Shown one piece after another: positions 24,465 through 54,043 of a stretch of DNA of 64,000 nucleotides. The first letter of the stretch is position 1. Every line of letters starts with the position of its first letter. The notes beneath the pieces are model-generated. The model worked only from the letters and a program-made list of their open reading frames with translations. It made no database searches and was not told the origin of the DNA. A program made the translations under genes and the position numbers. The stretch covers positions 7,374 through 71,373 of the forward strand of contig CAYVNP010000013.1 of the NCBI GenBank assembly GCA_964452905.1. The letters are read 5' to 3'. The DNA is from an uncultured Bacteroidales bacterium (GTDB taxonomy: Bacteria; Bacteroidota; Bacteroidia; Bacteroidales; CAYVNP01).

Positions 24465-25217
24465 TTAATTTAATACACGATGTGACATCAGATCGTTAAA
24501 TTCATCTTTCTTCCTTCTCGAAATAATTACTTTAGAACCATCCTTCAGTTCAATATAATTATCATTGGTTATAAGTTTTTTTACAAAATTTAAATTAATA
24601 AGATATGATTTATGACATCGGAAGAAATCTTTATCGGTAAGCAATAATTCAAATTCCATGATATTTTTACTTACCACCATATTCTGTTTGTTGGTCATAT
24701 ATAGATGGGAATAACTTCCATCTGCAAGAATATAAATAATTTCATCAATATTGATATATTCCACTCCTTCTGAAGTAGATACTGAAATATTTTTTGATTG
24801 AGTTAACTTAATATTTTCAAGCAGTTTTTCTATGTTCGGATTAATTCCTTTTATGGTTGTTCTTTTATCTTCAACACGTTTAACCGCAATCATCAGTTCA
24901 TCAATATTAACAGGTTTGATGATATAATCTATTGCATTGTGTTTAATAGCTTTTAAAGCATAATGATCATGAGCTGTGATAAAAATTACTTCAAAGAATC
25001 TGTTCGGAATACATTCTAATAGATCAAATCCTGTTCCTTGTGGCATTTCAATATCAAGAAAAAGCAGATCCGGCTGATGCTCCAGAATAAGTTTGATCCC
25101 CTCTTTAAAAGAATTTGTTTTGGCAGTAACGTCTACTTTCGGGCAATACCTTTTTAATATCAGGTCGAGAGTATTAATGGCATCTATTTCGTCGTCAATG
25201 ATAATTGCTTTGATCAT
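24465..25217 (-). CDS. LytR/AlgR-family response regulator (REC + LytTR DNA-binding domain)
   Basis: MIKAIIIDDE...DLLFLDIEMP receiver and a C-terminal LytTR pattern (FFRCHKSYLINLNFV). Starts 5 nt after the kinase stop. Confidence 0.92.
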   Translation of the reverse strand: MIKAIIIDDEIDAINTLDLILKRYCPKVDVTAKTNSFKEGIKLILEHQPDLLFLDIEMPQGTGFDLLECIPNRFFEVIFITAHDHYALKAIKHNAIDYIIKPVNIDELMIAVKRVEDKRTTIKGINPNIEKLLENIKLTQSKNISVSTSEGVEYINIDEIIYILADGSYSHLYMTNKQNMVVSKNIMEFELLLTDKDFFRCHKSYLINLNFVKKLITNDNYIELKDGSKVIISRRKKDEFNDLMSHRVLN

Positions 25218-25221
25218 AATT

Positions 25222-27435
25222 CTATAAATTTATTATTGTTGGAATATTAAGTTCTACGAGTGTTCCAAGAGGATTATTGTATTCGTCTTTTAAATCAGTA
25301 TACGTAAATTTTAAATCTTTTTTATACAATTTATTTATTAGTTCCAATCGTGATTTAGTAATATTTATTCCCATCGAACGATGTTGTTGCTTTTTCTGTT
25401 TTTTAAGTTCCATCGCCTTTTCCCTACCAACACCGTTATCTTGTATCCGACAGCTGATTTTATCCTCAAGGTATCTGAGTTCAATCATTATTTTTCCTGA
25501 TTCCTCTTTCGGCATTAATCCATGCCAAATAGCATTTTCAATAAACGGTTGAATAATTAAAGAAGGTATCTTGTATAAGTTTGTATCTATTTTCTCATCA
25601 ATGATTATTTCATACTCAAACCGATTTTTAAACCGTAAAGTTTCCAATTCTAAATAAAGATTTAAACTTTCAATTTCATCTTTGATAGGAATGACAAGAT
25701 TTTGAGAATTATTCAACGTATTTCGCATTAAACTGGCAAACTTAGTAAGATAGCGGTTTGATGAAAGTATATCGTTTTGTAAAATATAATACTGAATGGA
25801 ATTCATTGCATTGAAAATAAAATGAGGATTCATCTGCCGACTTAGAGCTGAAATATTCGCTTTATTCAATTCCGATTGAAGTTGATTCCGTTTACGTATT
25901 TCCTGATTTCTGTAAAATAGATAAAAAGATAAAAACAGGACGAAAACAATAATAATTCCTATAGTAAAAAAATATCGTTGACGATTGATACTATTCTGCC
26001 GTTTATTCAATTCAAGTTCATCTAATATCTTCACTTTGTTTAAGGATTCAATCATGCGTTGTTTCTTTTCCGTTTGATATTTAGTCAGGATTTCATTGAT
26101 TTGCTTGTTGTTTTCCAGTTTAAATAATGAATCATAGATTGATTTAAAGAGTTTATAATTTGTAAAAGCTTCTTTATAAGAGCCCTGATTAGCATAAACT
26201 TCCGAGAGGAGCTCATAATTATTTTTGATCTGATCGACAAAATTTATTTTTAAAGCCAGGTTCAAACTTTTTTGAAGATAATGCACTGACTGATTATATT
26301 GGCGGAGATAATTATAGTTTGAACCTATCGCACTAAGGTTAAGGCATATCCCCGATTGATTATTGATCTGTTCATTGATCTTCAGTGCCTTCAGATAATA
26401 GTCAATGGAAAGAGAATTATTTTTTTTTGTTTCATAGGTATGACCTAAATTATGCAGAGAGGTAGCAATCCCTGGCAGATCATTGATTTTTTCACGGATA
26501 GAAAGAGCTTCATTAAAAACTCCAAGAGCTTTTTGCAATTCATTTTTTGCCAGATAAATATTGCCGATATTTGTAAGGGTATTGGCAATACCTGATTTAT
26601 TATTTATTTTTTTTTCTACATATAGGGACTTATGAAAATAATCCAGTGCGATATCATGTTGCAGCAAATTTTCATTGATTATACCTAAGTTCGTATAACA
26701 ACTGGCAATTCCTTTTTGAAAATTGATTTTTTCCGAGAGTTTCAATGCATCCTGATAACATAAAATAGCTTTGGTATATTTCCCCCAGTAAAGATAAATA
26801 TTACCGATCTGGTTTAAAGATATGGCCTGCCCTTTGGTGTCATTAGCCGTTTTTTTAATTTCAAGGGCTTCCTGATAATATTGTAACGATTTTTCATAAT
26901 TGCTGATGGCAGAATAAGCCAGTCCAATATTATTCAGTGTACGTGAAATATTTTTGGGGTTCCTGAATTTTTTAAAAATAAACAAGGCCTGTAAGTGAGA
27001 TTCGATTGCTTTTTCATATTCCCCCTTTTGATAATAAATCAACCCAAGATTTTCAAATGATAATCCTATCCCTAAAGTATCATTAATCCTTTTTCTGATA
27101 TTTAAAGATTTAGTAAAATTGAAAAGTGCTGAATCAATATTATTTTTCAGATAATATGATTTACCAAGATTATCGTAAGCCGCAGCCAACTCTTTTGAAA
27201 AGGATGTATGTTTTAAAAGGGTCAATACGGTTAAAGCATATTTTTTTGAAGAATCAGGTTGAATATTTAAATATTCTTCAGATATGTTATTAATTATAGT
27301 AATATATCTGACTCCTTTTGATTTTGATAATAAAACAGAAAGACTATCAATCTTGGGTTGCGAAAAAAGAACCCCGTTTATTAGATAAAACAAGATAAAC
27401 AATAAAAAATATCTGGGCATAAATGAATAATTCAT
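25222..27435 (-). CDS. TPR-repeat sensor histidine kinase (LytS-type His_kinase domain)
   Basis: Signal peptide, about 10 extracytoplasmic TPR units (repeated A...Y..AL.I...), a single TM (FFTIGIIIVFVLFLSFYLFY), then QMNPHFIFNAMNSIQ and the ATPase region IQPFIENAIWHG. Confidence 0.9.
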   Translation of the reverse strand: MNYSFMPRYFLLFILFYLINGVLFSQPKIDSLSVLLSKSKGVRYITIINNISEEYLNIQPDSSKKYALTVLTLLKHTSFSKELAAAYDNLGKSYYLKNNIDSALFNFTKSLNIRKRINDTLGIGLSFENLGLIYYQKGEYEKAIESHLQALFIFKKFRNPKNISRTLNNIGLAYSAISNYEKSLQYYQEALEIKKTANDTKGQAISLNQIGNIYLYWGKYTKAILCYQDALKLSEKINFQKGIASCYTNLGIINENLLQHDIALDYFHKSLYVEKKINNKSGIANTLTNIGNIYLAKNELQKALGVFNEALSIREKINDLPGIATSLHNLGHTYETKKNNSLSIDYYLKALKINEQINNQSGICLNLSAIGSNYNYLRQYNQSVHYLQKSLNLALKINFVDQIKNNYELLSEVYANQGSYKEAFTNYKLFKSIYDSLFKLENNKQINEILTKYQTEKKQRMIESLNKVKILDELELNKRQNSINRQRYFFTIGIIIVFVLFLSFYLFYRNQEIRKRNQLQSELNKANISALSRQMNPHFIFNAMNSIQYYILQNDILSSNRYLTKFASLMRNTLNNSQNLVIPIKDEIESLNLYLELETLRFKNRFEYEIIIDEKIDTNLYKIPSLIIQPFIENAIWHGLMPKEESGKIMIELRYLEDKISCRIQDNGVGREKAMELKKQKKQQHRSMGINITKSRLELINKLYKKDLKFTYTDLKDEYNNPLGTLVELNIPTIINL

Positions 27436-27544
27436 TTTTGTAAAGATATGAATTATAAATAAATAGCAAAACGTTTAATAATTGATTTTTTTCAAATTTG
27501 AAAAAAAAATTTATCTTTAAGGGACAATTTTGCCAATTTATATA

Positions 27545-27566
27545 TATATTTGTATAAATATATTTG
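27545..27566 (+). promoter_or_regulatory. Candidate Bacteroidota -7 promoter boxes (two TATATTTG copies 14 bp apart) upstream of the paralog array
   Basis: TATATTTG at 27545-27552 and 27559-27566 fits the TAnnTTTG consensus. They lie 38-52 nt upstream of the GTG at 27604. Confidence 0.35.
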
Positions 27567-27603
27567 AAAGAACCTATTCGTTTTTAATATTAAATATAGA
27601 AAA

Positions 27604-29805
27604 GTGAAGATTAAATTTATTTTTTTAAATATTTTGTTTTTTTCAATATGTGGTTTTTTATTCGCACAAAAATCAAACTGTCCTGCAATTTATCAGAAGC
27701 AGGATATTTGTGTGGTTACCGTTGATCAGATAATAAATAAAGCGGTTGTAGTGTGGGAAAAAACACGTGGACTTGGTATTAAATCTTTTTTAATCTATAA
27801 ATTGAGACATAATGGCTTGGATCAATGGGATGTAGCAGATACAATTCCTTTTAACAACCAGAGTATTTGGACGGATAAAAATTCCAATCCTGATTTATAT
27901 CCCGAATCATATAAAATTGCAGTGATGGATTCTTGTGGAAATATTTCCAACCTTAGCAGAGTTCACAGTTCCATCTATTTTCGTGCAGTTCGACAACCGC
28001 AAGGAATGCCTTATACTGAATTTCATTGGACAAATCCAATAGAGAACCCATACGATGATTTTTATAAATATGAACTATATGGTGGAGATACTATTTCAAA
28101 TTTAAAATTATTCAATTCTGGAAATTTAATAAGTGGTGGAGGTGATACAACATCACTTTCGGCTGACTGGGATCCTTCCTCACAATATAGATATTATTAT
28201 ATTATTTATATAAAAAGAGATTCATGTAATCCTGAAATTATTAAAAAAGGTGTGCCGGTATATGGCAAATCCATTTCAAACCTGGAAGATCTTGGAGCCC
28301 CTGAATGCAAAAATCCACCTTATATTTGGCAACAACAAATCTGTCTGACTACTGTTGATCATAAAACAAATAAGGTAGTGGTGGTTTGGGAAAAGATATT
28401 AAATGATGCGATTAAGTCTTTTTTAATATATAAATTAAGACACACAGGAACCAATCAATGGGATATTGTTGCTAACATCCCCTATAGGAGTGAAACTGTT
28501 TGGACAGATCCATATTCCAATCCCGATTTATATCCCGAGTCCTACAAAATAGCAACTATAGATACATGCGGTAATATTTCGAATCTAAGTATGGAAAACA
28601 AGTCAATCTATTTAACTGCAAAAACCATTCTTAATAATGATTCGGTTAATCAACTTAGTTGGAATTTTCCCAATTCATCAAGAGATGATGGTTTTTACTT
28701 GCCTCCCGATATTTATGGTGGAAGCACTAAAGAAACTATGAGATTATTTAGACAGGATGAGATTTCTATTATTTACGACTCTACATATAAAGTTCCTAAA
28801 TACCGTTACTATTATATTGCTTATAATGTAAAGGATACTTGTTTTCCATCCATATTTAAAAAAGGTGTTCCTGTTTATTCGCGTTCTGTTTCCAATTTAG
28901 AAGATTTAGGAGCATCATTTTGCTTCAGTATTCCATATGCCGATCAAAAAATCTGCATGGTAACAATAGATACTGTTTTGAATAAGAATGTTGTAGTATG
29001 GGATAAGCTCAAAAATAAAGGAATAGAATTCTTTTATATTTATAAATACAAATTGAATGGAGATTCAATCAAAGATGTAATAGTTATTTCTTCACATATG
29101 GCAGGTGTCTGGTTAGATTCCAGTTCAACACCGGATAAAGAGTCTGCAGATTATCGGATAGGGATTATTGATACGTGCGGTAATGTATCCAAGCCCAGTC
29201 CATATTCCTTCAGATCCGTTCATTTGTCAGTTGCAAAAGATAATAATGAAATTAACTTTCAATGGAATCACCCGATTGATGATCCCACATCAGAATTTAC
29301 CCGTTGTTTAATCTATGGAGGAAATGATTCATTGTATTTAACTCTACTATCAACGATAACTGATTTTAGTACAAAAAAAACATTTTTAACTTCTGATCCT
29401 TCTTCACATTATCTGTATTATCGAATTATTTATGAAAAAATTTCTATCTGTAATCCAACATTGAAAAAAGGGAATAGTAATTATTATTATCAAATCAAAT
29501 CCAATTTATTCAATACTGGAATGCTCGTAGGCATAGGAAAATATTCACTTCTGAATGAATCCATACTACTTTATCCAAACCCTGTTCGGGATTTGTTATC
29601 TGTGATGATTAAGAATCAATCAGAGAATACCGTAGAAATCGAATTAAAAGATGTACTTGGCAATACATTGTTAAAACAGGAATGGAATATTACATCTAAC
29701 AAACAAACCTTCAATTTAAATCTGTCCGGTTTATCCAGAGGTTTTTATTTTATAAAACTGAATAATGGTAATACGTCCATAATTCAAAAGATTATATTAA
29801 ATTAA
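27604..29805 (+). CDS. T9SS type-A-sorted modular surface protein, 3 modules (paralog 1)
   Basis: GTG start, signal peptide, three modules of about 205 aa starting at Cys26, Cys235 and Cys440. Each module reads C..(I)YQ.Q.IC.VTVD...NK.VVVWEK...GI.SF.IYK...W.D..SNPD...YKIA..D.CGN.S. C-terminal LYPNPVRDLLSV...GFYFIKL..IQKIILN is a Por-secretion-tail-type CTD. Confidence 0.85.
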   Translation: MKIKFIFLNILFFSICGFLFAQKSNCPAIYQKQDICVVTVDQIINKAVVVWEKTRGLGIKSFLIYKLRHNGLDQWDVADTIPFNNQSIWTDKNSNPDLYPESYKIAVMDSCGNISNLSRVHSSIYFRAVRQPQGMPYTEFHWTNPIENPYDDFYKYELYGGDTISNLKLFNSGNLISGGGDTTSLSADWDPSSQYRYYYIIYIKRDSCNPEIIKKGVPVYGKSISNLEDLGAPECKNPPYIWQQQICLTTVDHKTNKVVVVWEKILNDAIKSFLIYKLRHTGTNQWDIVANIPYRSETVWTDPYSNPDLYPESYKIATIDTCGNISNLSMENKSIYLTAKTILNNDSVNQLSWNFPNSSRDDGFYLPPDIYGGSTKETMRLFRQDEISIIYDSTYKVPKYRYYYIAYNVKDTCFPSIFKKGVPVYSRSVSNLEDLGASFCFSIPYADQKICMVTIDTVLNKNVVVWDKLKNKGIEFFYIYKYKLNGDSIKDVIVISSHMAGVWLDSSSTPDKESADYRIGIIDTCGNVSKPSPYSFRSVHLSVAKDNNEINFQWNHPIDDPTSEFTRCLIYGGNDSLYLTLLSTITDFSTKKTFLTSDPSSHYLYYRIIYEKISICNPTLKKGNSNYYYQIKSNLFNTGMLVGIGKYSLLNESILLYPNPVRDLLSVMIKNQSENTVEIELKDVLGNTLLKQEWNITSNKQTFNLNLSGLSRGFYFIKLNNGNTSIIQKIILN

Positions 29806-32039
29806 AAACTTTTTGTTTTGATATTTTTAATTATGAAAAAAGAAATCGTTTATATTTTATTTTTGATTTTTCTGTTAAATAATGTTTTTTCACAAAAATC
29901 AGATTGTCCGACTATTTATCAAGGTCAAGATATTTGTATGGTTACAGTTGATCAAACTATTAATAAAGCCGTAGTTGTTTGGGAAAGAAAAAAAGAACTT
30001 GGAATCAAATCATTTATTATTTATAAAGTTATGCAATCATCAGGTGATTGGATTGTAGCAGATACTATACCATTTGAAAAAGAAAGTATCTGGACTGACT
30101 ATCAATCAAATCCTGACACTACATTTGAAATGTATAAAATTGCAGTTATTGATACTTGCGGTAATGTTTCAACTTTAAGTAGAATGCATTCATCTGTTTA
30201 TCTGGCATGTTATAGAAATATTAGTTTAACAAATTTAACTTGGACACCTCCAACTTTAACACCTACAACAGATTATATCAATTGGGAAATTTATGGAGGA
30301 AATACATTATCAAAAATGAAACTGATTGAAACTGGACCAATTATTAATGATGATTTTATAATTAATAAAGAATATTTAAGTTCTGATTCCCTTTCAAAAT
30401 TCCGTTATTATTCTATAGCTTATGTTAAAAAGGATACATGTTTTCCATCCATATTTAAAAAAGGTGTTCCTGTTTATTCGCGTTCTGTTTCCAATTTAGA
30501 AGATTTAGGAGCATCATTTTGCTTCAGTATTCCATATGCCGATCAAAAAATCTGCATGGTAACAATAGATACTGTTTTGAATAAGAATGTTGTAGTATGG
30601 GATAAGCTCAAAAATAAAGGAATAGAATTCTTTTATATTTATAAATACAAATTGAATGGAGATTCAATCAAAGATGTAATAGTTATTTCTTCACATATGG
30701 CAGGTGTCTGGTTAGATTCCAGTTCAACACCGGATAAAGAGTCTGCAGATTATCGGATAGGGATTATTGATACGTGCGGTAATGTATCCAAGCCCAGTCC
30801 ATATTCCTTCAGATCCGTTCATTTGTCAGTTGCAAAAGATAATAATGAAATTAACTTTCAATGGAATCACCCGATTGATGATCCCACATCAGAATTTACC
30901 CGTTGTTTAATCTATGGAGGAAATGATTCATTGTATTTAACTCTACTATCAACGATAACTGATTTTAGTACAAAAAAAACATTTTTAACTTCTGATCCTT
31001 CTTCACATTATCTGTATTATCGAATTATTTATGAAAAAATTTCTATCTGTAATCCAACATTGAAAAAAGGGAATAGTAATTATTATTATCAAATCAAATC
31101 CAATTTATTCAATACTGGAATGCTCGTAGGCATAGGAAAATATTCACTTCTGAATGAATCCATACTACTTTATCCAAACCCTGTTCGGGATTTGTTATCT
31201 GTGATGATTAAGAATCAATCAGAGAATACCGTAGAAATCGAATTAAAAGATGTACTTGGCAATACATTGTTAAAACAGGAATGGAATATTACATCTAACA
31301 AACAAACCTTCAATTTAAATCTGTCCGGTTTATCCAGAGGTTTTTATTTTATAAAACTGAATAATGGTAATACGTCCATAATTCAAAAGATTATATTAAA
31401 TTAAAAACTTTTTGTTTTGATATTTTTAATTATGAAAAAAGAAATCGTTTATATTTTATTTTTGATTTTTCTGTTAAATAATGTTTTTTCACAAAAATCA
31501 GATTGTCCGACTATTTATCAAGGTCAAGATATTTGTATGGTTACAGTTGATCAAACTATTAATAAAGCCGTAGTTGTTTGGGAAAGAAAAAAAGAACTTG
31601 GAATCAAATCATTTATTATTTATAAAGTTATGCAATCATCAGGTGATTGGATTGTAGCAGATACTATACCATTTGAAAAAGAAAGTATCTGGACTGACTA
31701 TCAATCAAATCCTGACACTACATTTGAAATGTATAAAATTGCAGTTATTGATACTTGCGGTAATGTTTCAACTTTAAGTAGAATGCATTCATCTGTTTAT
31801 CTGGCATGTTATAGAAATATTAGTTTAACAAATTTAACTTGGACACCTCCAACTTTAACACCTACAACAGATTATATCAATTGGGAAATTTATGGAGGAA
31901 ATACATTATCAAAAATGAAACTGATTGAAACTGGACCAATTATTAATGATGATTTTATAATTAATAAAGAATATTTAAGTTCTGATTCCCTTTCAAAATT
32001 CCGTTATTATTCTATAGCTTATGTTAAAAAGGATACATG
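28840..32039 (+). repeat. Perfect tandem direct duplication, 2 x 1,599 bp
   Basis: Copy 1 (28840-30438) matches copy 2 (30439-32037) at every line I compared (offset 1599). Mismatches occur only at 28839/30438 and 30441/32040. The microhomology AAGGATAC(T/A)TG is present at 28831, 30430 and 32029. Confidence 0.9.
29833..31404 (+). CDS. T9SS type-A-sorted modular surface protein, 2-module chimera (paralog 2)
   Basis: ATG at 29833 (track opens at the TTG at 29818). The first about 202 aa are identical to paralog 3 and the last about 321 aa identical to paralog 1. The junction falls at the DTC codons (30430-30440). Confidence 0.8.
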   Translation: MKKEIVYILFLIFLLNNVFSQKSDCPTIYQGQDICMVTVDQTINKAVVVWERKKELGIKSFIIYKVMQSSGDWIVADTIPFEKESIWTDYQSNPDTTFEMYKIAVIDTCGNVSTLSRMHSSVYLACYRNISLTNLTWTPPTLTPTTDYINWEIYGGNTLSKMKLIETGPIINDDFIINKEYLSSDSLSKFRYYSIAYVKKDTCFPSIFKKGVPVYSRSVSNLEDLGASFCFSIPYADQKICMVTIDTVLNKNVVVWDKLKNKGIEFFYIYKYKLNGDSIKDVIVISSHMAGVWLDSSSTPDKESADYRIGIIDTCGNVSKPSPYSFRSVHLSVAKDNNEINFQWNHPIDDPTSEFTRCLIYGGNDSLYLTLLSTITDFSTKKTFLTSDPSSHYLYYRIIYEKISICNPTLKKGNSNYYYQIKSNLFNTGMLVGIGKYSLLNESILLYPNPVRDLLSVMIKNQSENTVEIELKDVLGNTLLKQEWNITSNKQTFNLNLSGLSRGFYFIKLNNGNTSIIQKIILN

Positions 32040-33627
32040 CTATCCTACCCTAATTAGAAAAGGGATACCTATTTACGCTCGTTCTACTTCTAATTTAGCT
32101 GATTTAGGATTTCCCCCTAAATGTGTCAGCCAACCTTATCAGGGACAAGATATTTGTCTTGTTACTATAGATCAAACTATAAATAAAGCTGTTGTTGTCT
32201 GGGAACGAAAAAAAGATCTCGGTATCAAATCGTATATCATTTATAAGTTAAGCCATACCATTGCCAATAAATGGGATGTGGCTGCTGATATTCCTTTTGA
32301 AAACGAAAGTGTCTGGATTGACCAGAATTCAAATCCTGATTTATATCCCGAATCCTATAAAATCGCTGTTATGGATACATGCGGAAACATTTCAGATCCT
32401 AGCAGAACTCATCGTTCAATCTTTTTAGAAGTTATAAGAAATTATACTGGACTACCTTATACAAATTTTAATTGGAATCGTCCTACAATAACACCTGTAA
32501 ATGATTATTATAAACTTGAAATTTATGGTGGTGATACACTATCCAAATTGAAAATTATCAGTTCTATCACAATTCAAGTTGACGACACTACTACATTTAT
32601 TGCAAACTGGGATCCTGCTTCACAATTCCGGTATTATTATCTAGTTTATTTCCGTTCCGATACCTGTTATCCTTCAATCATTAAGAAAGCACCTCCATTT
32701 GCTTATTCTATTTCCAATCTCCCTGATTTAGGATTTCCACCCTGTCAAAGTAAAACATATCAAAATTTTAAAATATGTTTAGTTACAGTAGATTCGACAA
32801 CACATAAAACGACATTAGTTTGGGAACGTCCAAAAAATTTAGGAATAGAATCATTTCTGATCTTTAAGAAAAATACGAATGTATCACCTCCTGTTTGGGA
32901 TGTACTCGATACTATTCCGTTTACCCAAAATAGCATTTGGACTGATCCTACTTCAAATCCTGATAAGAAAACCGAATTCTATAAATTTGGCATTTTAGAT
33001 ACATGTGGAAATTTAACATATTCTAATGTTACACAAAATTCCATCTATTTATCTCTTACGAAGAATGCTGATAATATTAAACTTTCATGGAATAATCCTT
33101 CAAAAGACCCAACATTGGATTTTAATTATTTTAAAATATTTGGCGGGAATAATCCTTCCGGTTTAAATCTAATTTTTACAGGTTCTAATTTTGACACTTC
33201 AAAAACATTTTTTCAGTCTGATCCTTCATCACAATATAAATATTATATTGTGATTTTTTACAAAATTGACACCTGTCAATCAGCAATTAATAAGAAAGGT
33301 GATTTGATTAATCTTTCTCAAATAACTTCAAATCTTGCCTACTTTGATATTCCTATAGGGATTACATCAACTAATGAATTTTCATTTCACGTGTCTCCTA
33401 ATCCTGCTCACGACGAATTAACAATTTATTTTACTAATTCCGAAAAGAAAAAAACAATTATAGAAATAACTGATTTGTTGGGAAATATTATTACCCAACA
33501 AGAACTTGTAATACCTACTATTAATCATTCAATTCATATTAACTTATCATCCTTAACAAAAGGGATCTATTTTATTAGAGTTAAAAGTGATAATTATTTA
33601 AAGTTACAAAAATTGATTATCAATTAA
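31432..33627 (+). CDS. T9SS type-A-sorted modular surface protein, 3 modules (paralog 3)
   Basis: ATG at 31432, signal peptide and three modules with the same motif set. C-terminal VSPNPAHDELTIYF...GIYFIRV...LQKLIIN is a type-A CTD. Confidence 0.85.
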   Translation: MKKEIVYILFLIFLLNNVFSQKSDCPTIYQGQDICMVTVDQTINKAVVVWERKKELGIKSFIIYKVMQSSGDWIVADTIPFEKESIWTDYQSNPDTTFEMYKIAVIDTCGNVSTLSRMHSSVYLACYRNISLTNLTWTPPTLTPTTDYINWEIYGGNTLSKMKLIETGPIINDDFIINKEYLSSDSLSKFRYYSIAYVKKDTCYPTLIRKGIPIYARSTSNLADLGFPPKCVSQPYQGQDICLVTIDQTINKAVVVWERKKDLGIKSYIIYKLSHTIANKWDVAADIPFENESVWIDQNSNPDLYPESYKIAVMDTCGNISDPSRTHRSIFLEVIRNYTGLPYTNFNWNRPTITPVNDYYKLEIYGGDTLSKLKIISSITIQVDDTTTFIANWDPASQFRYYYLVYFRSDTCYPSIIKKAPPFAYSISNLPDLGFPPCQSKTYQNFKICLVTVDSTTHKTTLVWERPKNLGIESFLIFKKNTNVSPPVWDVLDTIPFTQNSIWTDPTSNPDKKTEFYKFGILDTCGNLTYSNVTQNSIYLSLTKNADNIKLSWNNPSKDPTLDFNYFKIFGGNNPSGLNLIFTGSNFDTSKTFFQSDPSSQYKYYIVIFYKIDTCQSAINKKGDLINLSQITSNLAYFDIPIGITSTNEFSFHVSPNPAHDELTIYFTNSEKKKTIIEITDLLGNIITQQELVIPTINHSIHINLSSLTKGIYFIRVKSDNYLKLQKLIIN

Positions 33628-33650: not shown

Positions 33651-33685
33651 AACCTCATAGTTTGACTATGAGGTTTTTTATTTTA
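33651..33685 (+). terminator. Rho-independent terminator after the paralog array
   Basis: Perfect 10-bp stem AACCTCATAG / CTATGAGGTT with loop TTTGA, followed by TTTTTTATTTT. Confidence 0.8.
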
Positions 33686-33819: not shown

Positions 33820-34173
33820 ATGAGAACACTAATTTTAATTTTAGCATTATTAATAATTACAAAAATGTCATTTACTCAAAATTTAAAACTTTCAAGACGA
33901 ATAAAATTTATTGCAATAAATACTCATTCTATTAATACAATATCATCGAATATGATTTATAGTGTAACTAATAAACAGAATGTACCAAAAAAACATAAAT
34001 TTTCAAATTCAAATATCAGTAGAATTTGTTTTTTTGATTCAGTTGGATCAATCAAATTTATTTATCATCCATCTGTAATTGATACTTCTTACAGTAATAC
34101 ACCAATTGAATGTATGCATTACCCGAAACATCTTTATTATTATTTATTTTATGTAAAAAGAGCTATTTGTTAA
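33820..34173 (+). pseudogene. Short ORF resembling a decayed module of the upstream paralog family
   Basis: 117 aa with a signal-like N-terminus. ISRICFFDSVGSI is comparable to YKIAVMDSCGNIS, and the C-terminal HLYYYLFYVKRAIC to YRYYYIIYIKRDSC. There is no CTD. Confidence 0.35.
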
Positions 34174-34373: not shown

Positions 34374-35438
34374 ATGAACCGCCTCTATCTGATTGTTATT
34401 TTCATTCCATTTATTTTTTCATGTAAAAAAGATAAACCTCAGATTATTCAACATAAATATATTGACACAACCAATAAAGATTCAGTGACTTTAGATCCGA
34501 ATTTACTACATTATATTAATCCGGTATTAAATACCGATTTCCCCGATCCTGCCATACTTCTGGCACAAGATGGATACTATTATTCGTATGCTACCAATGG
34601 GAAATACGATGGTGTTTTTTGTACTATTCAAGTGGCTCGTTCAGCCGACATGGTCAATTGGGAGCATCTGGGTGATGCTATGCCAGTTCAACCCGACTGG
34701 GCAAGTGGTGATTTCTGGGCGCCCCATGTGATCTATGATGATTCATTAAAAAAATATTTCATGTATTTTTCCGGTGAGAATAATGGGAAATGCCTGGGTG
34801 TTGCAACTTCCAATTCACCCGAAGGACCCTTTGTTGATAAAGGGACTCCGCTTCTGTGTGGTGATGGTTTTGTGAATATTGATCCTATGGCTTTTGATGA
34901 TCCCCAAACCGGAAAGCATTATCTGTTCTGGGGTTCAGGATTCCAAGCCATCAAAGTACAAGAACTGACAAGGGATAGAATGCATTTTGTTTCGGGCAGT
35001 CAACCGAAAGGACTTATATATCCAAATGGTGGAGAACCCTATAAAATTTTAGTTGAAGGTAACTGGGTAATCTATCGGAATGGAAAATATTATATGTTTT
35101 ATTCAGGTGATAATTGTTGCGGTACAAAAGCACATTACGCTGTCATGGTTGCCAGAGCCGACAGCCCAACCGGACCTTTTACCGAATTTAAAAGCCCAAC
35201 TGAAAATTCAAGTGTTATCCTACGTGACAGTTATAACTGGCGTGGTCCGGGACATAATTCAATCATTACAGATAAAGCCGGCAACGACTGGATCGTTTAT
35301 CATGCTATGCGTCCTGAAGATATGGCACGCACGTTCCGTGTGATGCTCATTGACAGAATATTATGGGTTGAAGGCTGGCCAAGGGTGTACAATGATCAGC
35401 CATCAAATGTTTTATGCAATGCCCCGGTAGTAAACTGA
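34374..35438 (+). CDS. Glycoside hydrolase family 43 lipoprotein (arabinanase/xylosidase-like)
   Basis: Lipobox IFSCKK. DFPDPAILLAQDGYYYSYATN and FWAPHVIYD, followed by VEGNWVIYRNGKYYMFYSG, are the five-bladed-propeller GH43 motifs. Confidence 0.88.
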   Translation: MNRLYLIVIFIPFIFSCKKDKPQIIQHKYIDTTNKDSVTLDPNLLHYINPVLNTDFPDPAILLAQDGYYYSYATNGKYDGVFCTIQVARSADMVNWEHLGDAMPVQPDWASGDFWAPHVIYDDSLKKYFMYFSGENNGKCLGVATSNSPEGPFVDKGTPLLCGDGFVNIDPMAFDDPQTGKHYLFWGSGFQAIKVQELTRDRMHFVSGSQPKGLIYPNGGEPYKILVEGNWVIYRNGKYYMFYSGDNCCGTKAHYAVMVARADSPTGPFTEFKSPTENSSVILRDSYNWRGPGHNSIITDKAGNDWIVYHAMRPEDMARTFRVMLIDRILWVEGWPRVYNDQPSNVLCNAPVVN

Positions 35439-43022: not shown

Positions 43023-46000
43023 ATGAAAAAAATTGTATCTTTTCAAATACTGATTTTATTATTATCCCTAAAAATAACAGCTCAAAATATTGGTATCAAT
43101 ACTGATGGAAGTACACCTGATGCTGGTGTAATGCTCGACATTAAGCCATCAAGCAGCGGTTCGGTTGATCCTTTGCTACTCCGAATGAGAGGCACTACAG
43201 ATGGTGCACAGTATATTGCTGTTTTATTCGGTAATAATAATTTTCAGTATTATCATACACTTAAATCAAGACACAGCAGTACAGCAAACAACAGCAATGC
43301 CCTTGATTTTTATTTATCAACCACAACATCCGGAACGCAAAAACAGGTTCTTTCTTTAACTGGAGCTGGTAATGTTGGAATTGGTACTATCGCCCCATCT
43401 GCATCTGCAATGCTTGAAATGTCATCAACATCAGGTGGTTTATTGATTCCGCGTATGACTGCTGCCCAGAAAGTTGCAATTGGAACTCCAGCCACCGGAT
43501 TATTAATTTATCAAACAGATGCTCCTGTCGGATTCTGGTATTATAATGGAACATCCTGGTTGCCTTTGTTAGGAGCAATCAGCAGCAGTGATGGTACAGC
43601 CGGTTGGTCCTTAACGGGAAATACAGGCACAACAGCAGGAACAAACTATCTCGGAACTTCCGATGCAAAAGATTTTGTTATAAAAACCAATGGCACAGAA
43701 AGAGTACGTGTAAAATCAGGAGGTAATGTTGGTATTGGGACAAATGCACCGGCACAAAAACTCGAGATTACAGGGAATACGAGGATTTCAGGAGGTAATG
43801 GTCTAGAAATCACTGAAACTGGAAATCCATTTTTACGAATTGCCTTGGACCAAAGTACGGCTGGTTATAGTTGTATCGTTAATAACTGGGGCAATAGCTC
43901 AAATCCTGGTGTTGTTGTGGGTTCAACCCGAACAGACGGAAATGCTTTTCAAGTGGGGACAGGAATTACACTTGACGCAAATTCACTCCCAAATTCCAAT
44001 GGAACTCAACGATTTTTAGTTCAAGGAAATGGTGATATCGGTATGACAGCCACTGACCTTTCTCATAGTTTACAAGGCGGAACAGTACCCTATAAAATTA
44101 CACGTCTGGTTCGCATTGCTACTGATAATGATAATGAAGATGCACTTTTTCAAATTACCAGTTCCGGGGGGTCCTCTCATATTAATCTCTTTTCTGGAAA
44201 CAGCACTGATAATCCAGCTTTTATCTGGCAACAAAACAAAAGTATTCGTTTCGGCGTATGGGATTCATGGAAAACAGCAACATTCACAAGTATGATATTA
44301 ATCAATGGAACTAACGGTTATGTTGGTATAAATAATGATGTACCTTCAGCAAGGTTAAGCATTGCTAACACTGGAGTAACGGAATTAACCGGTACTTCTC
44401 ATTCATCCACATTTCGAACAATTGCAGGTACACTTGGAAATACTGTTGGGGATCTTCTTCAGTTAGCTTCAATTGGCTATAAAACAAATCAACCAAATAG
44501 CTGTGCTCTTGGTTTTTGGTCTTACAGACATTCAACTACATCCCCTTTTCCTCATGGATGGGATGGAACATCTATAGGACTTACAATGGATGTTGACAAC
44601 TCAGCAAGAGCTGGAAATGGACTTTGGTTAAAACATAATGGCTATATTGGTATTGGCACACCGAATCCACAAAATAAATTTGAAGTCAGTAAAGACGGTA
44701 CTACCGAAGGATTTTCAGTTTCAACAGGTGGGGTTGTCAAAATAAACAATGTGTACTCATTGCCAACTGCCGTTGGAATATCAGGGCAAGCGCTTATTTC
44801 GGCTGGTGCAACATCTAACTGGGGGACACTGGGTGTAGCTGGAGGTGGAACCGGAGCCAACTCGTTAACCGGCATGATTAAAGGAAATGGAATAGGTGCA
44901 TTTACCGGTATTACAGGTACACAATGGGGAATAACCTACTGGTCAAATGCAAATACGATTGCTTCTACTGCTGCTGGTACTGCAGGGCAGGTGCTCATTT
45001 CAAATGGAGCTGCAGCGCCTGCATGGGCAAACATGAACTCCTACAATTGGAGTTTGACGGGTAATTCTGGTACCACACCCGGAACCAATTATTTAGGCAC
45101 TTCCGATGCAAAAGATTTAATCCTGTCAACGGCTGCCACCGAACGATTCCGTATTACCAGTGATGGGACTAAATTTGGTTTTAATACCGGAGGCACTCCC
45201 ACCTATAATTTTCATGTTAAACCTGCTTCAGGCAATACGATTGATGCCATGTTCACACCAACAGAATGGAATTCAACCGATGATTATTCTAAAATCATGT
45301 TAGGTTTTACTGACCATTATATTAAAGCAGCTCAAAATGCAGGAATGGATATCTATACCAATGATGATCTGAGGTTTTATACCGGAACCGGTTCGGGGGG
45401 AAGCAATGTGGGTAAACAACGGATGAAGATTGAGGAAACCGCCAATAATACGACCTATGTTGATCTGACCACGGACCCTTCTGATGCCACAGCATGGAAC
45501 AGTAGCGGAGATTTCGTGCGTCTGCGTTTGGGTGATGACAATCATTACATTCATGGAGAATATGGAGTTGGAATGACATTTAATGATGTAAATAAATTCA
45601 ATTTTACAGGCGGGAATGTCGGTATTAACCAAACTGCTCCCGAATGGAAATTGCAGATGACATCATCCGGAAATAATACACCGGATGCATTACAGGCAAC
45701 GAATGCCAATAAATCCCGATTCCTGACCGTTTTTTCCGGAAGTGAAAATGCAAACGATGATTCACCTGCTTTGGTTTGGGGTCAACGAGGAGGAACTGCC
45801 GGATTGCAGGGAAATATATTAAGACTTGGTACCTGGAACGCTTCCAGTGGATCAAGCTGGCAAGAACATTACAGGTTTTATGGGGACGGTAATACAACCG
45901 CAAATGCAACTCGGGTTGATATAAAACAAGGATATGACAGGACCACAGCAACAGATAACTATTATACTCTTGATTTACGAAAAGGTGATAATACAGATGT

Positions 46001-46481
46001 GACAGGCACCTGTGTCATTAATGATAATTTAAATGTTTATGGAACGATATGGGCTAATGGCGCTACCATTACTAACGGCTTTACTACGTGGTCTGACGGA
46101 CGATTTAAAACAAATATCTATCCGATTAATTTCCCTTCAGAAAAAATCAAGAAACTCAATGGGGTTTATTATCTTTGGCGAACCGATACATCCACTGCCG
46201 GAATTAATTTCCCGGTTGGCAAACAAATGGGGTTGATTGCTCAAGATGTTGAAAAAGTTTTTCCGGAAGCAGTAATTGAATTCAAAGGGTTAAAAACAAT
46301 TGATTACGGCAAATTAATTTCACCTTTGATTGAAGCTTTTAAAGAACAACAAATATTATTAGAACAATTGATACATGATAATCAACTTCTTGAATCAGAT
46401 AATAAAAATTTAAAAGAATATCTTGACAAACTGGATACAAGACTTAAAAATATTGAAGCATTATCTAAAACAGACAAATAG
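43023..46481 (+). CDS. Secreted tail-fibre-like protein with a C-terminal intramolecular chaperone (endosialidase chaperone / Peptidase_S74) domain
   Basis: Signal peptide. Five repeats of the G(N/Y)VGIGT..P...L.(V/I/M) collar motif. An internal duplication (WSLTGN[TS]GTT.GTNYLGTSDAKD at about aa 195 and about aa 680). C-terminus TW-SDGRFKTNIYPI...LNGVYYLWR...GLIAQDVEKVFPEAV...IDYGKLISPLIEAFKEQQ followed by a coiled coil. The predicted autocleavage Ser is codon 1024 (nt 46092). Confidence 0.85.
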   Translation: MKKIVSFQILILLLSLKITAQNIGINTDGSTPDAGVMLDIKPSSSGSVDPLLLRMRGTTDGAQYIAVLFGNNNFQYYHTLKSRHSSTANNSNALDFYLSTTTSGTQKQVLSLTGAGNVGIGTIAPSASAMLEMSSTSGGLLIPRMTAAQKVAIGTPATGLLIYQTDAPVGFWYYNGTSWLPLLGAISSSDGTAGWSLTGNTGTTAGTNYLGTSDAKDFVIKTNGTERVRVKSGGNVGIGTNAPAQKLEITGNTRISGGNGLEITETGNPFLRIALDQSTAGYSCIVNNWGNSSNPGVVVGSTRTDGNAFQVGTGITLDANSLPNSNGTQRFLVQGNGDIGMTATDLSHSLQGGTVPYKITRLVRIATDNDNEDALFQITSSGGSSHINLFSGNSTDNPAFIWQQNKSIRFGVWDSWKTATFTSMILINGTNGYVGINNDVPSARLSIANTGVTELTGTSHSSTFRTIAGTLGNTVGDLLQLASIGYKTNQPNSCALGFWSYRHSTTSPFPHGWDGTSIGLTMDVDNSARAGNGLWLKHNGYIGIGTPNPQNKFEVSKDGTTEGFSVSTGGVVKINNVYSLPTAVGISGQALISAGATSNWGTLGVAGGGTGANSLTGMIKGNGIGAFTGITGTQWGITYWSNANTIASTAAGTAGQVLISNGAAAPAWANMNSYNWSLTGNSGTTPGTNYLGTSDAKDLILSTAATERFRITSDGTKFGFNTGGTPTYNFHVKPASGNTIDAMFTPTEWNSTDDYSKIMLGFTDHYIKAAQNAGMDIYTNDDLRFYTGTGSGGSNVGKQRMKIEETANNTTYVDLTTDPSDATAWNSSGDFVRLRLGDDNHYIHGEYGVGMTFNDVNKFNFTGGNVGINQTAPEWKLQMTSSGNNTPDALQATNANKSRFLTVFSGSENANDDSPALVWGQRGGTAGLQGNILRLGTWNASSGSSWQEHYRFYGDGNTTANATRVDIKQGYDRTTATDNYYTLDLRKGDNTDVTGTCVINDNLNVYGTIWANGATITNGFTTWSDGRFKTNIYPINFPSEKIKKLNGVYYLWRTDTSTAGINFPVGKQMGLIAQDVEKVFPEAVIEFKGLKTIDYGKLISPLIEAFKEQQILLEQLIHDNQLLESDNKNLKEYLDKLDTRLKNIEALSKTDK

Positions 46482-51930: not shown

Positions 51931-52006
51931 CTCTCTGTAGCTCAGTTGGTAGAGCAATTGACTCTTAATCAATGGGTCGCAGGTTCGAATCCTGCCAGGG
52001 AGACCA
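51931..52006 (+). tRNA. tRNA-Lys (anticodon CUU), CCA encoded
   Basis: Folded by hand. Acceptor CTCTCTG/CAGGGAG (one G-U pair), D arm GCTC-AGTTGGTA-GAGC, anticodon stem ATTGA/TCAAT with loop CTCTTAA (CTT at 51964-51966), variable loop GGGTC, T arm GCAGG-TTCGAAT-CCTGC, discriminator A, then CCA. Confidence 0.95.
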
Positions 52007-52630: not shown

Positions 52631-54043
52631 TTAAAGTAGGGCGTCTGAAATGGTCCATAGTAACAATTTCCAGTAGTCTGTTCTTCCCTTATTAAGAACT
52701 CCAATTATAAAAATTGATTTCATAAAAGCTTTTAATGTAACAATATTAATTTGGGAAGGCAAATTATTGTGGGGATTATAATTTAAAAGTAACTGACGAA
52801 TTCGTTTATAATATGGTTTTGTAGTATATATATCATGAATGATTTTTTTATATCCCAACACCAATTCATTAACATTCATCTTAGGAATAAAATTCATTGA
52901 AAAGTCGGTGTTATTGCCTGATGCTTCAATGGTCAGCCTGTTTTCTGCTTCAAGTCGTCTGTATAGTTTGGTGTTTTTAGGTGCATTCAATAAACCCACC
53001 ATGGCAGATACAATTCCGCTTTGCTGGATAAAATCAATTTGTCTTTGAAAAACAGTTGTCGTATCACTATCGAAACCTACAATAAATCCGGCTGAAACCT
53101 GTAATCCTGCTTGTTGGATTTTCTTAACACTTTCCAACATGTCTCTGTTTTTATTCTGACTTTTATTACACTCCTGTAAAGATTTTTCATCCGTTGTTTC
53201 AATTCCTATAAAAGTAGAGTTAAATCCTGCTTCAACCATTAATGACATAAGCTTTTCATCATCTGCAAGGTTTATGGATGTTTCTGTGTTAAAAACAAAT
53301 GGATATTTATGCCTTTTCATCCATGTTTTCATAGCAGGGAGAAGATTGTTTTTAATTTCATTTTTGTTTCCAATGAAATTATCATCAACGATAAGTATAG
53401 GTCCACGCCAATTCAGTTGATAAAGTGTTTCAAGTTCATGTATTATTTGAGAGGTAGCTTTCATTCGTACCTTGTGTCCTAAAAGGGAAGTAATTTCACA
53501 AAAATCGCATGAAAAGGGACATCCACGTGAAACCTGAATATTCATTAATGCGTAATCCTTTCTTGATAATAAATGAAAATCAGGAACAGGAGTCAAACGA
53601 ATATCAGCATATTCATCCGTTTTATATATTTTTTGAGGATGACCAGATTCTAAATCTTTCAAAAAGTGCGGGAAGGTAATTTCTGCTTCATTCAAAATCA
53701 AATGATCTATTTGCGGATAGTTGTTAAACTCCTGAGTAAAAAGAGGGCCACCAGCAACAATTTTAACTTTATGTTTAACACATTCTTCAATGATCTTGTT
53801 TACCGATTCCTTTTGGATGTACATGGCGCTGATAAAAACATAATCCGCCCAAAGGATATCATTTGTCCGAAGGGTAGATATATTCATATCTACCAATTTT
53901 TTTTTCCATGTTTTGGGTAGCATGGCAGATATGGTGATCAAACCAAGTGGAGGTACACCGGCTTTTTTAGAAATAAAACGTAAAGCATACTTGAAACTCC
54001 AGAATGAATCAGGGTATTGTGGATATATTAATAAAACTTTCAT
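52631..54043 (-). CDS. B12-binding-domain radical SAM protein (DUF4070-type C-terminus), apparently frameshifted near the 3' end
   Basis: MKVLLIYPQYPDSFWSF..PPLGLITISAMLP (B12-binding-like N-domain) and SRGCPFSCDFCEI (CxxxCxxC). The ORF stops at 52631, but the frame reached by adding one T continues as FRRPTLIVDAITFSIYGYHYRKVFRLSK* to 52563. Confidence 0.85.
   Translation of the reverse strand: MKVLLIYPQYPDSFWSFKYALRFISKKAGVPPLGLITISAMLPKTWKKKLVDMNISTLRTNDILWADYVFISAMYIQKESVNKIIEECVKHKVKIVAGGPLFTQEFNNYPQIDHLILNEAEITFPHFLKDLESGHPQKIYKTDEYADIRLTPVPDFHLLSRKDYALMNIQVSRGCPFSCDFCEITSLLGHKVRMKATSQIIHELETLYQLNWRGPILIVDDNFIGNKNEIKNNLLPAMKTWMKRHKYPFVFNTETSINLADDEKLMSLMVEAGFNSTFIGIETTDEKSLQECNKSQNKNRDMLESVKKIQQAGLQVSAGFIVGFDSDTTTVFQRQIDFIQQSGIVSAMVGLLNAPKNTKLYRRLEAENRLTIEASGNNTDFSMNFIPKMNVNELVLGYKKIIHDIYTTKPYYKRIRQLLLNYNPHNNLPSQINIVTLKAFMKSIFIIGVLNKGRTDYWKLLLWTISDALL

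Follow-up and report, generated by a model that had tools for sequence, protein, structure and literature searches.

A perfect 1599-nt tandem duplication with an in-frame hybrid gene in an array of putative type IX secretion cargo proteins from an uncultured Bacteroidales bacterium

We analyzed a 64,000-nucleotide stretch of DNA from an uncultured Bacteroidales bacterium (GenBank assembly GCA_964452905.1, contig CAYVNP010000013.1). We will call this stretch the window, and all positions are counted from its first base. Three same-strand open reading frames (ORFs), which we will call P1, P2, and P3, lie at 27604–33627, and within them a segment of 1599 nt is present twice, head to tail, without a single difference. 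The middle gene, P2, lies across the join between the two copies: its 5' part is P3-type and its 3' part is P1-type. The best explanation, to which we give a probability of roughly 0.8, is a single in vivo tandem duplication by a short-junction event, present in at least part of the population. We infer that the event occurred in vivo and that most of the cells carry it.

If the duplication is real in vivo, then a single event led to the growth of a gene family by tandem duplication, to a new gene at the join, and to the shuffling of domains at structural boundaries. Furthermore, the ancestor could be reconstructed exactly, with no later mutations.

The duplicated unit and the gene at its junction

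P1 (27604–29805, + strand; 733 amino acids from a GTG start) and P3 (31432–33627, + strand; 731 amino acids) each begin with a hydrophobic N-terminus, followed by three modules of about 205 amino acids each and by a C-terminal T9SS (type IX secretion system) sorting domain of type A. As discussed below, each module is predicted to be a pair of fibronectin type III (FN3)-like domains. The ORF of P1 has matches to PF18962 (56 bits) and TIGR04183 as well as three module matches, and P1 is identical to the database protein P0003. The ORF of P3 likewise has the domain and module matches, and P3 is identical to P0001. P2 (29833–31404, + strand) has two module matches and encodes 523 amino acids from its ATG; it is annotated in the source record as a 523-amino-acid protein (P0002). 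The N-terminus of P2 is hydrophobic and is modelled by AlphaFold (AF2) as a helix at residues 2–19. (The label “signal peptide,” as we use it here, is putative and comes from the sequence and this model.) The three ORFs are set apart by identical spacers of 27 nt, at 29806–29832 (between P1 and P2) and at 31405–31431 (between P2 and P3, inside the duplicated unit; both + strand).

The first copy of the unit (28840–30438, + strand) is identical, base for base, to the second copy (30439–32037, + strand): a direct comparison of the copies found 0 mismatches in 1599 positions. The original prediction, made by reading the sequence, had reported this repeat with the caveat that a base-by-base alignment might turn up differences that had been missed, and there are none. 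At an offset of 1599, the identical run actually extends from 28840 to 30440, or 1601 nt instead of 1599, because the next two bases (TG) are common to both sites. The run is flanked by mismatches (28839 is T while 30438 is A, and 30441 is T while 32040 is C), again as had been claimed. Beyond them, the identity at this offset is 20–42% in every flanking 100-nt bin, which is the background level for sequence with 30% GC. In a whole-window repeat scan, this tandem was the only long perfect repeat, and the other repeat families of the array region were fragments of modules that are 66–80% identical.

Each copy of the unit contains module 3 and the sorting domain of P1, the stop codon, the 27-nt spacer, and a P3-type signal peptide and module 1. 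The unit starts with the terminal cysteine codon of P1 module 2, and it ends just before the terminal cysteine codon of the P3-type module 1. Since 1599 is divisible by 3 (3 × 533), the reading frame is kept; both breakpoints have the same codon phase. Codons 1–202 of P2 are P3-type (signal peptide and module 1), and codons 203–523 are P1-type (the terminal cysteine codon, the linker, module 3, and the sorting domain). The original prediction had correctly described which genes the unit contains and how the middle gene is composed (about 202 amino acids of P3 fused in frame to about 321 of P1).

The same motif is found at both outer boundaries of the unit and at the novel junction. It reads AAAGGATACTTG at the left outer boundary (28830–28841, + strand; P1 module 2/3, codons K-D-T-C), and it reads AAAGGATACATG both at the junction (30429–30440, + strand) and at the right outer boundary (32028–32039, + strand; P3 module 1/2). 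The match among the three sites, AAAGGATAC[T/A]TG, is 12 nt long and consists of 9 exact nt, one mismatch, and TG. The junction is P3-type through the A at 30438 and P1-type from the T at 30441, so the exchange is confined to the TG at 30439–30440. An 11-bp microhomology, AAGGATAC(T/A)TG, had been proposed for all three sites; it is indeed present at each of them, but it contains an internal mismatch, and only its TG can hold the exchange. The codons are AAT GTA AAG GAT ACT TGT TTT CCA at the P1 boundary, GTT AAA AAG GAT ACA TGT TTT CCA at the junction, and GTT AAA AAG GAT ACA TGC TAT CCT at the P3 boundary.

The breakpoints are at equivalent boundaries (P1 module 2/3 and P3 module 1/2), both at the terminal cysteine codon, and they share a short match because both encode K-D-T-C. 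A distance of 1599 nt separates the two breakpoints in the reconstructed ancestor with one unit, and they lie inside a homeologous tract of about 110 nt with 74% identity, which corresponds to the conserved coding sequence for the end of the module and the linker. Across the breakpoints, the longest exact run is 9 nt, and the best windows of 20, 35, and 50 nt are 85%, 80%, and 78% identical.

Origin, age, and copy number of the duplication

That one event took place is supported by the two identical head-to-tail units, by the single novel junction, and by the recurrence of one short motif at the junction and at each of the outer boundaries. Furthermore, both of the parental genes, P1 and P3, are intact around the in-frame hybrid. 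We propose that the starting state was two adjacent and co-transcribed genes, P1 and P3, for T9SS-secreted proteins with three modules each. One illegitimate-recombination or template-switch event, using the short imperfect match AAAGGATAC[T/A]TG at both module boundaries, would have linked the end of P3 module 1 with the beginning of P1 module 3, which lies 1599 nt upstream. Once the end of P3 module 1 had been copied, the nascent 3' end AAAGGATACATG may have re-paired with AAAGGATACTTG, either 1599 nt behind or on the sister chromosome; the 1599-nt segment would then be copied again, giving the tandem. The novel junction would create a two-module hybrid gene between intact P1 and P3, and this gene would inherit the 27-nt spacer and the start codon. 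Our proposal explains why the hybrid is in frame: the breakpoints match in codon phase and also in structural position, each at the last cysteine of a module and just ahead of a disordered linker.

The identity across the breakpoints is far below what RecA-dependent exchange normally needs. Bacterial tandem duplications have been classed by their flanking homology or by the microhomology at their junctions, and we applied the same scheme here. The Tandem tool (bioRxiv 10.64898/2026.05.22.727201) defines a signature of homologous recombination as at least 35 bp at 92% identity or higher, while the best 35-nt window across these breakpoints is 80% identical. Because there is no extended homology at the breakpoints, we place the duplication in the short-junction class rather than attributing it to homologous unequal crossing-over, and the event was probably independent of RecA. 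The original prediction proposed either unequal crossover or replication slippage, in a single event. A single duplication event does fit, but of these two mechanisms, classical RecA-dependent unequal crossover is the less likely, as the identity across the breakpoints stays at or below 80% in every window of at least 35 nt.

We also considered that P2 might be an old member of a three-gene array that was homogenised by gene conversion, with its 5' part overwritten from P3 and its 3' part from P1. Conversion is possible between paralogous genes in tandem. However, two tracts would be needed that together cover all of P2 and both spacers, that abut at the same dinucleotide, and that leave no residual P2-specific base, which is unparsimonious. 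Also, the other pairs of modules have no converted tracts (the best pair, with 58% protein identity, reaches 71% DNA identity over 210 nt), and there is no excess of synonymous identity anywhere along the modules. We rejected gene conversion on these grounds and give it next to no weight.

The single duplication that we favor is an ordinary and well-known kind of bacterial mutation, of which this locus is a clean natural example; no new mechanism is involved. The closest parallel is from Staphylococcus aureus, in which short-junction tandem duplications (of 1210 bp and other sizes), with a flanking repeat of 8 bp, created in-frame nusG'-'sigH and rplK'-'sigH chimeras (PMC3486894). In those cases, the parental genes stayed intact, the start signals of the downstream gene were used, the duplications reverted, and they appeared to be RecA-independent (PMC3486894). 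The similarities to our locus are the kilobase-scale unit (1210 bp there and 1599 bp here), a direct repeat of 8–12 nt that recurs at each outer boundary as well as at the join, a precise fusion that puts the 5' end of the downstream gene in frame ahead of the 3' end of the upstream gene, the retention of both parents, and the use of the downstream start signals. In contrast, the fusion partners in S. aureus are unrelated, and in that case the event had been selected for and its reversion was shown in the laboratory; in our locus, paralogs are joined at equivalent domain boundaries, the repeat includes one mismatch, and the duplication is seen in one draft assembly. And whereas the S. aureus product is a tagged protein, the product here is a domain-shuffled member of the family. 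More generally, identical head-to-tail copies, a novel join, and an expected instability are features of tandem duplications and amplifications in bacteria (Anderson and Roth; Andersson and Hughes; 10.64898/2026.05.22.727201; PMC12607827). Unlike most of the duplications that have been studied, which involve whole genes and are selected for dosage, this unit is short, and what it mainly yields is a new combination of domains.

How old is the duplication? In Pseudomonas aeruginosa, the rate of loss of a 2.6-kb duplication was about 1e-4 in each generation, which corresponds to a half-life of about 7,100 generations (PMC12607827). Finding no differences across 1599 positions implies that the copies have diverged by less than about 0.2% (95% confidence). 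At typical bacterial mutation rates, loss at the rate seen in P. aeruginosa is orders of magnitude faster than substitutions in 3.2 kb, so a short duplication that is not under selection will, in nearly every case, still have identical copies when it is caught. The identity of the copies thus means that the duplication is young or continuously re-homogenised, not that it is special. The original prediction had taken the identity as a sign of an event so recent that no substitution had accumulated: the zero differences are confirmed, but they are expected of any short duplication that is caught.

Several points weigh against a real duplication in vivo, or limit what can be said about it. The duplication is known from one draft NCBI contig of 75,882 bp, where the three proteins are singletons, and the assembly does not fix the copy number (2 or more) or the fraction of cells that carry it. 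It is the lack of homology that points to an independence from RecA. Neither the GTDB representative genomes nor the JGI metagenomes yielded a related locus. Finally, as an unlikely source of the junction, an in vitro chimera, from template switching at the homeologous linker during the polymerase chain reaction (PCR) or multiple displacement amplification (MDA), might have been threaded as a loop by the assembler. In a homolog search of about 15 billion proteins, P1, P2, and P3 were singletons, and their next relatives reached 35% identity or less across a full module (up to 41% for shorter stretches). No independent copy came up when P2 and P3 were looked up by exact match. The source organism has no close relative among 185,579 GTDB species representatives, where the best match to AspS, from metagenome-assembled genomes (MAGs) of uncultured Bacteroidia, was 78% identical; with AspS as a synteny anchor, 0 of 80 loci shared the array or its neighbours. 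As no relative of the array was found, the ancestral one-unit state was not seen.

If the duplication were an artefact of the library or the assembly, then the genome would have P1 followed by P3, and the junction would derive from rare chimeric molecules or from a mis-join of long reads, with the assembler going around the loop once. The ~110-nt tract with 74% identity around the breakpoints could prime template switching in vitro. Also, graph assemblers give the minimum traversal of a loop, which is exactly two copies, whatever the true number. On the other hand, low-coverage chimeric edges are normally pruned. The breakpoints share just 9 exact nt, which is too few for a collapse of k-mers (21 nt or more), and the only repeat of at least 21 nt in the reconstructed locus (23 nt, at 27886 and 32332) is elsewhere and was not used by the junction. 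We therefore rejected k-mer collapse, which implies that the junction sequence existed in the molecules that were sequenced. The 64 kb contain no other perfect repeat or oddity and no Ns, and DnaE (1181 amino acids) and AspS (581 amino acids) are full length. Furthermore, an artefactual join has no reason to hit the same codon phase and a structural boundary, although switching in vitro that is driven by similarity would do so. Overall, we consider an artefact unlikely. The original prediction had listed a collapsed or expanded repeat, or heterogeneity in the population, as alternatives: collapse of k-mers is ruled out, while the general caveat about artefacts, copy number, and heterogeneity stands. 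For annotators, perfect kilobase-scale tandem repeats in draft contigs from MAGs call for confirmation at the level of reads.

A real duplication might also be heterogeneous or amplified, so that the population is a mix of cells with 1, 2, 3, or more units, possibly selected for the dosage of a surface protein, and the assembly represents one of these states. Short tandem duplications are a common and unstable class of structural variant in bacteria: they arise often, they can amplify, and they are lost at the rate given above (PMC12607827). States with 1, 2, or 3 or more units would look alike in one assembly, and nothing in the sequence argues against heterogeneity. This is a realistic possibility, if somewhat short of even odds, and it would refine the short-junction duplication rather than replace it.

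The modules, their history, and the predicted hybrid protein

Between the six modules of P1 and P3, the protein identity is 37–58% and the DNA identity is about 56%. Each module closes with a conserved ...K/R-D-T/S-C, followed by the linker P-x-I-x-K-K-G-x-P-x-Y-x-R-S-x-S-N-L-x-D-L-G. Within the module regions (27667–29451 and 31492–33276), we also noticed the conserved motifs I-C-[LM]-V-T-V-D, W-E-K, and D-T-C-G-N, besides the terminal cysteine.

To describe the fold, we rely on an AF2 model of a single module, from an alignment of 41 sequences, with a predicted local distance difference test (pLDDT) score of 89 and a predicted template modelling (pTM) score of 0.81. The model has two beta-sandwiches behind a disordered linker of about 30 residues. 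When it was compared to the PDB with Foldseek, the top matches were exclusively pairs or arrays of FN3 domains (gp130 D4-6, fibronectin, and NCAM; best E = 2e-5). Similarly, a profile search of PDB sequences gave weak matches to FN3 domains of titin and chitinase A1 (E = 8e-4 to 0.3). Based on these matches of the model and the profile, each module is predicted to be a pair of FN3-like beta-sandwiches. Pfam and NCBIfam have no model that matches this FN3-pair module. Besides the sorting domain, P1, P2, and P3 have no match in either database at E ≤ 0.01, and this includes a lack of membership in Pfam's fn3 family.

The sorting domain itself is clear: all three proteins match PF18962 with 56–58 bits (the cut-off is 27) and TIGR04183 with 45–47 bits (the cut-off is 23). 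P1, P2, and P3 resemble T9SS type A cargo proteins with Ig- or FN3-like domains in having a putative signal peptide, beta-sandwiches, and a C-terminal Por_Secre_tail domain that scores above curated cut-offs. Unlike typical type A cargo, they have no catalytic or other functional domain and, besides the sorting domain, consist solely of the repeated module. They are probably T9SS-exported, FN3-rich proteins that are found on the surface or are secreted.

The AF2 model of P2 has a mean pLDDT of 76. In order, it comprises the N-terminal helix, the two sandwiches of module 1 (with the last strand at 192–199), a linker at 208–232 with pLDDT below 50, the two sandwiches of module 2 (240–402), a second disordered linker, and the sandwich of the sorting domain (444–522). 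The join, at residue 202/203, falls after the last strand of module 1 and ahead of the disordered linker, and the flanking domains are folded in the model. Since the join is between folded units, we expect the hybrid to fold, and to be secreted, in the same way as its parents, and P2 is predicted to be expressed and secreted. If so, imperfect identity over about 10 nt, retained for no other reason than that the two sites have four encoded residues in common, would have sufficed to make a foldable hybrid.

The module is not confined to this array. Each of the 117 distant homologs that our first search returned has a single copy of it, immediately before the T9SS sorting domain, and these homologs are cargo proteins of varied kinds. 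At E ≤ 1e-3, a profile search of 1.84 billion cluster representatives matched 24,893 proteins, of which 4,347 passed E ≤ 1e-30, and many of the top matches have 2–15 near-full-length modules in tandem. We had considered that the multi-module architecture might be unique to this lineage, and we rejected this idea because arrays of 2–15 modules are present in many other proteins. The ~205-amino-acid module looks like an uncurated and very common “pre-sorting-domain” module of Bacteroidota cargo proteins.

We built a neighbour-joining tree from the six modules of the array together with 35 single modules of other organisms. All six from the array group in one clade (100% bootstrap support), which implies that all of their multiplication took place within this lineage. 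A simple duplication of a whole gene should have led to the pairing of first modules with first modules, second with second, and third with third. Instead, P1 module 1 is the sister of P3 module 2 (97% bootstrap) and not of P3 module 1; P3 module 1 (78%) and P1 module 2 (85%) join next. The pairing of P1 module 1 with P3 module 2 thus records at least one older, out-of-register rearrangement of modules. Given that the modules are just 37–58% identical, these earlier rearrangements appear to be old and rare. The original prediction saw in the duplication a snapshot of how the family expands and shuffles; the tree agrees with this, though the older events are ancient. Also, P1 module 1 and P3 module 2 have in common an exact repeat of 23 nt, AATCCTGATTTATATCCCGAATC, at 27886–27908 and 32332–32354. 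No other exact repeat in the reconstructed one-unit locus is as long, and it exceeds the match that the duplication used. It fits the sister relationship of these two modules, and it could be a substrate for further rearrangement.

The older rearrangement raises the question of whether modules are shuffled by a program, at high frequency, with the array as a contingency locus and the conserved linker as the recombination site that diversifies surface proteins. The location of the breakpoints, within the best-conserved nucleotide tract between the genes, would also fit. However, no recombinase, reverse transcriptase, or invertase is among the genes annotated at 15.9–46.5 kb, which are housekeeping genes, regulators, glycosidases, and transport genes, and the repeat scan of the window found no inverted repeats flanking the array. 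For these reasons, we rejected a mobile or programmed element. Also, synonymous sites in the linker are not more conserved than in the module as a whole (0.42–0.67 versus 0.57 overall), and the divergence of the modules implies that the earlier events were old and rare. We consider programmed shuffling to be very improbable. Only a little more credible, and still a long shot, is that the array is a recurring hotspot, at which the K-D-T-C and linker codons at every boundary repeatedly template short-junction duplications and deletions. If this were true, then the population would have a spectrum of T9SS surface proteins that vary in the number and order of their modules, with no dedicated recombinase, and the assembly would be a snapshot.

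Shuffling of domains or of repeat numbers, by recombination between repeats, is known from the streptococcal Alp/Rib and M proteins and from transcription activator-like (TAL) effectors. As in our array, these are modular beta-sandwich or repeat proteins of the cell surface, and recombination at the repeat boundaries keeps the frame while changing the number or order of modules. In those systems, though, the repeats are nearly identical in DNA, homologous recombination is at work, and a single gene is involved, whereas here the modules have only about 56% DNA identity and the event reached across two genes and a spacer.

Transcription and the surrounding genes

P1, P2, and P3 look like a single transcription unit. 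A terminator scan found no terminator-like site in either of the 27-nt spacers, which implies co-transcription, and it found a strong intrinsic-terminator-like hairpin (an 11-bp stem and a T-run) at 33651–33675 or 33651–33685 (+ strand), 3' of P3, which would close the unit. Upstream of P1 is an intergenic region of 168 nt (27436–27603, + strand), shared with a divergent gene for a TPR-containing histidine kinase. By eye, it contains two TATATTTG boxes, at 27545–27552 and 27559–27566. The -7 promoter consensus of Bacteroidota is TAnnTTTG, and because both boxes fit it, they are the putative promoter of P1. (A scan for Sigma-70 promoters was uninformative, with 49 sites found and 49 expected.)

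The divergent genes (24465–27435, - strand) encode a two-component pair, by their domain matches: a sensor with TPR and His_kinase domains (25222–27435) and a LytTR response regulator (24465–25217). The sensor has His_kinase/HATPase_c domains and a weak similarity to FimS of Porphyromonas. From its position, this pair is a possible, and perhaps dedicated, regulator of the array.

Directly after the array is a GH43 arabinanase-like gene (34374–35438, + strand). Between the array's terminator and this gene lies a 117-amino-acid ORF (33820–34173, + strand), which matches no family and whose translation is AT-rich and of low complexity; this ORF is unlikely to be a gene. Beyond the GH43 gene are housekeeping genes for PFK, RlmL, and AspS, with DnaE farther off. 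The locus is ordinary chromosomal DNA of an uncultured member of the Bacteroidota.

The window encodes other T9SS cargo as well: a protein of 1359 amino acids with a type B sorting domain (1328–5407, - strand), and another protein (56100–58280, + strand) that has a type A sorting domain and is cellobiosidase-like (CelK-like). Together with the GH43 gene, these secreted and polysaccharide-related proteins suggest a glycan-degrading lifestyle.

We also noticed two other genes in the window. An ORF of 1152 amino acids (43023–46481, + strand) has a match to Peptidase_S74 near its C-terminus and to no other domain. Peptidase_S74 is the intramolecular chaperone of endosialidases and tail-fibre proteins. 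This ORF has an internal repeat of 106 nt with 71% identity (43604/45047), and it lies among housekeeping genes, with no obvious prophage. Finally, a gene at 52631–54043 (- strand) encodes a B12-binding radical SAM protein that is similar to PhpK or BchE, with scores below all equivalog cut-offs, and it adjoins a tRNA-Lys(CTT) at 51931–52006.

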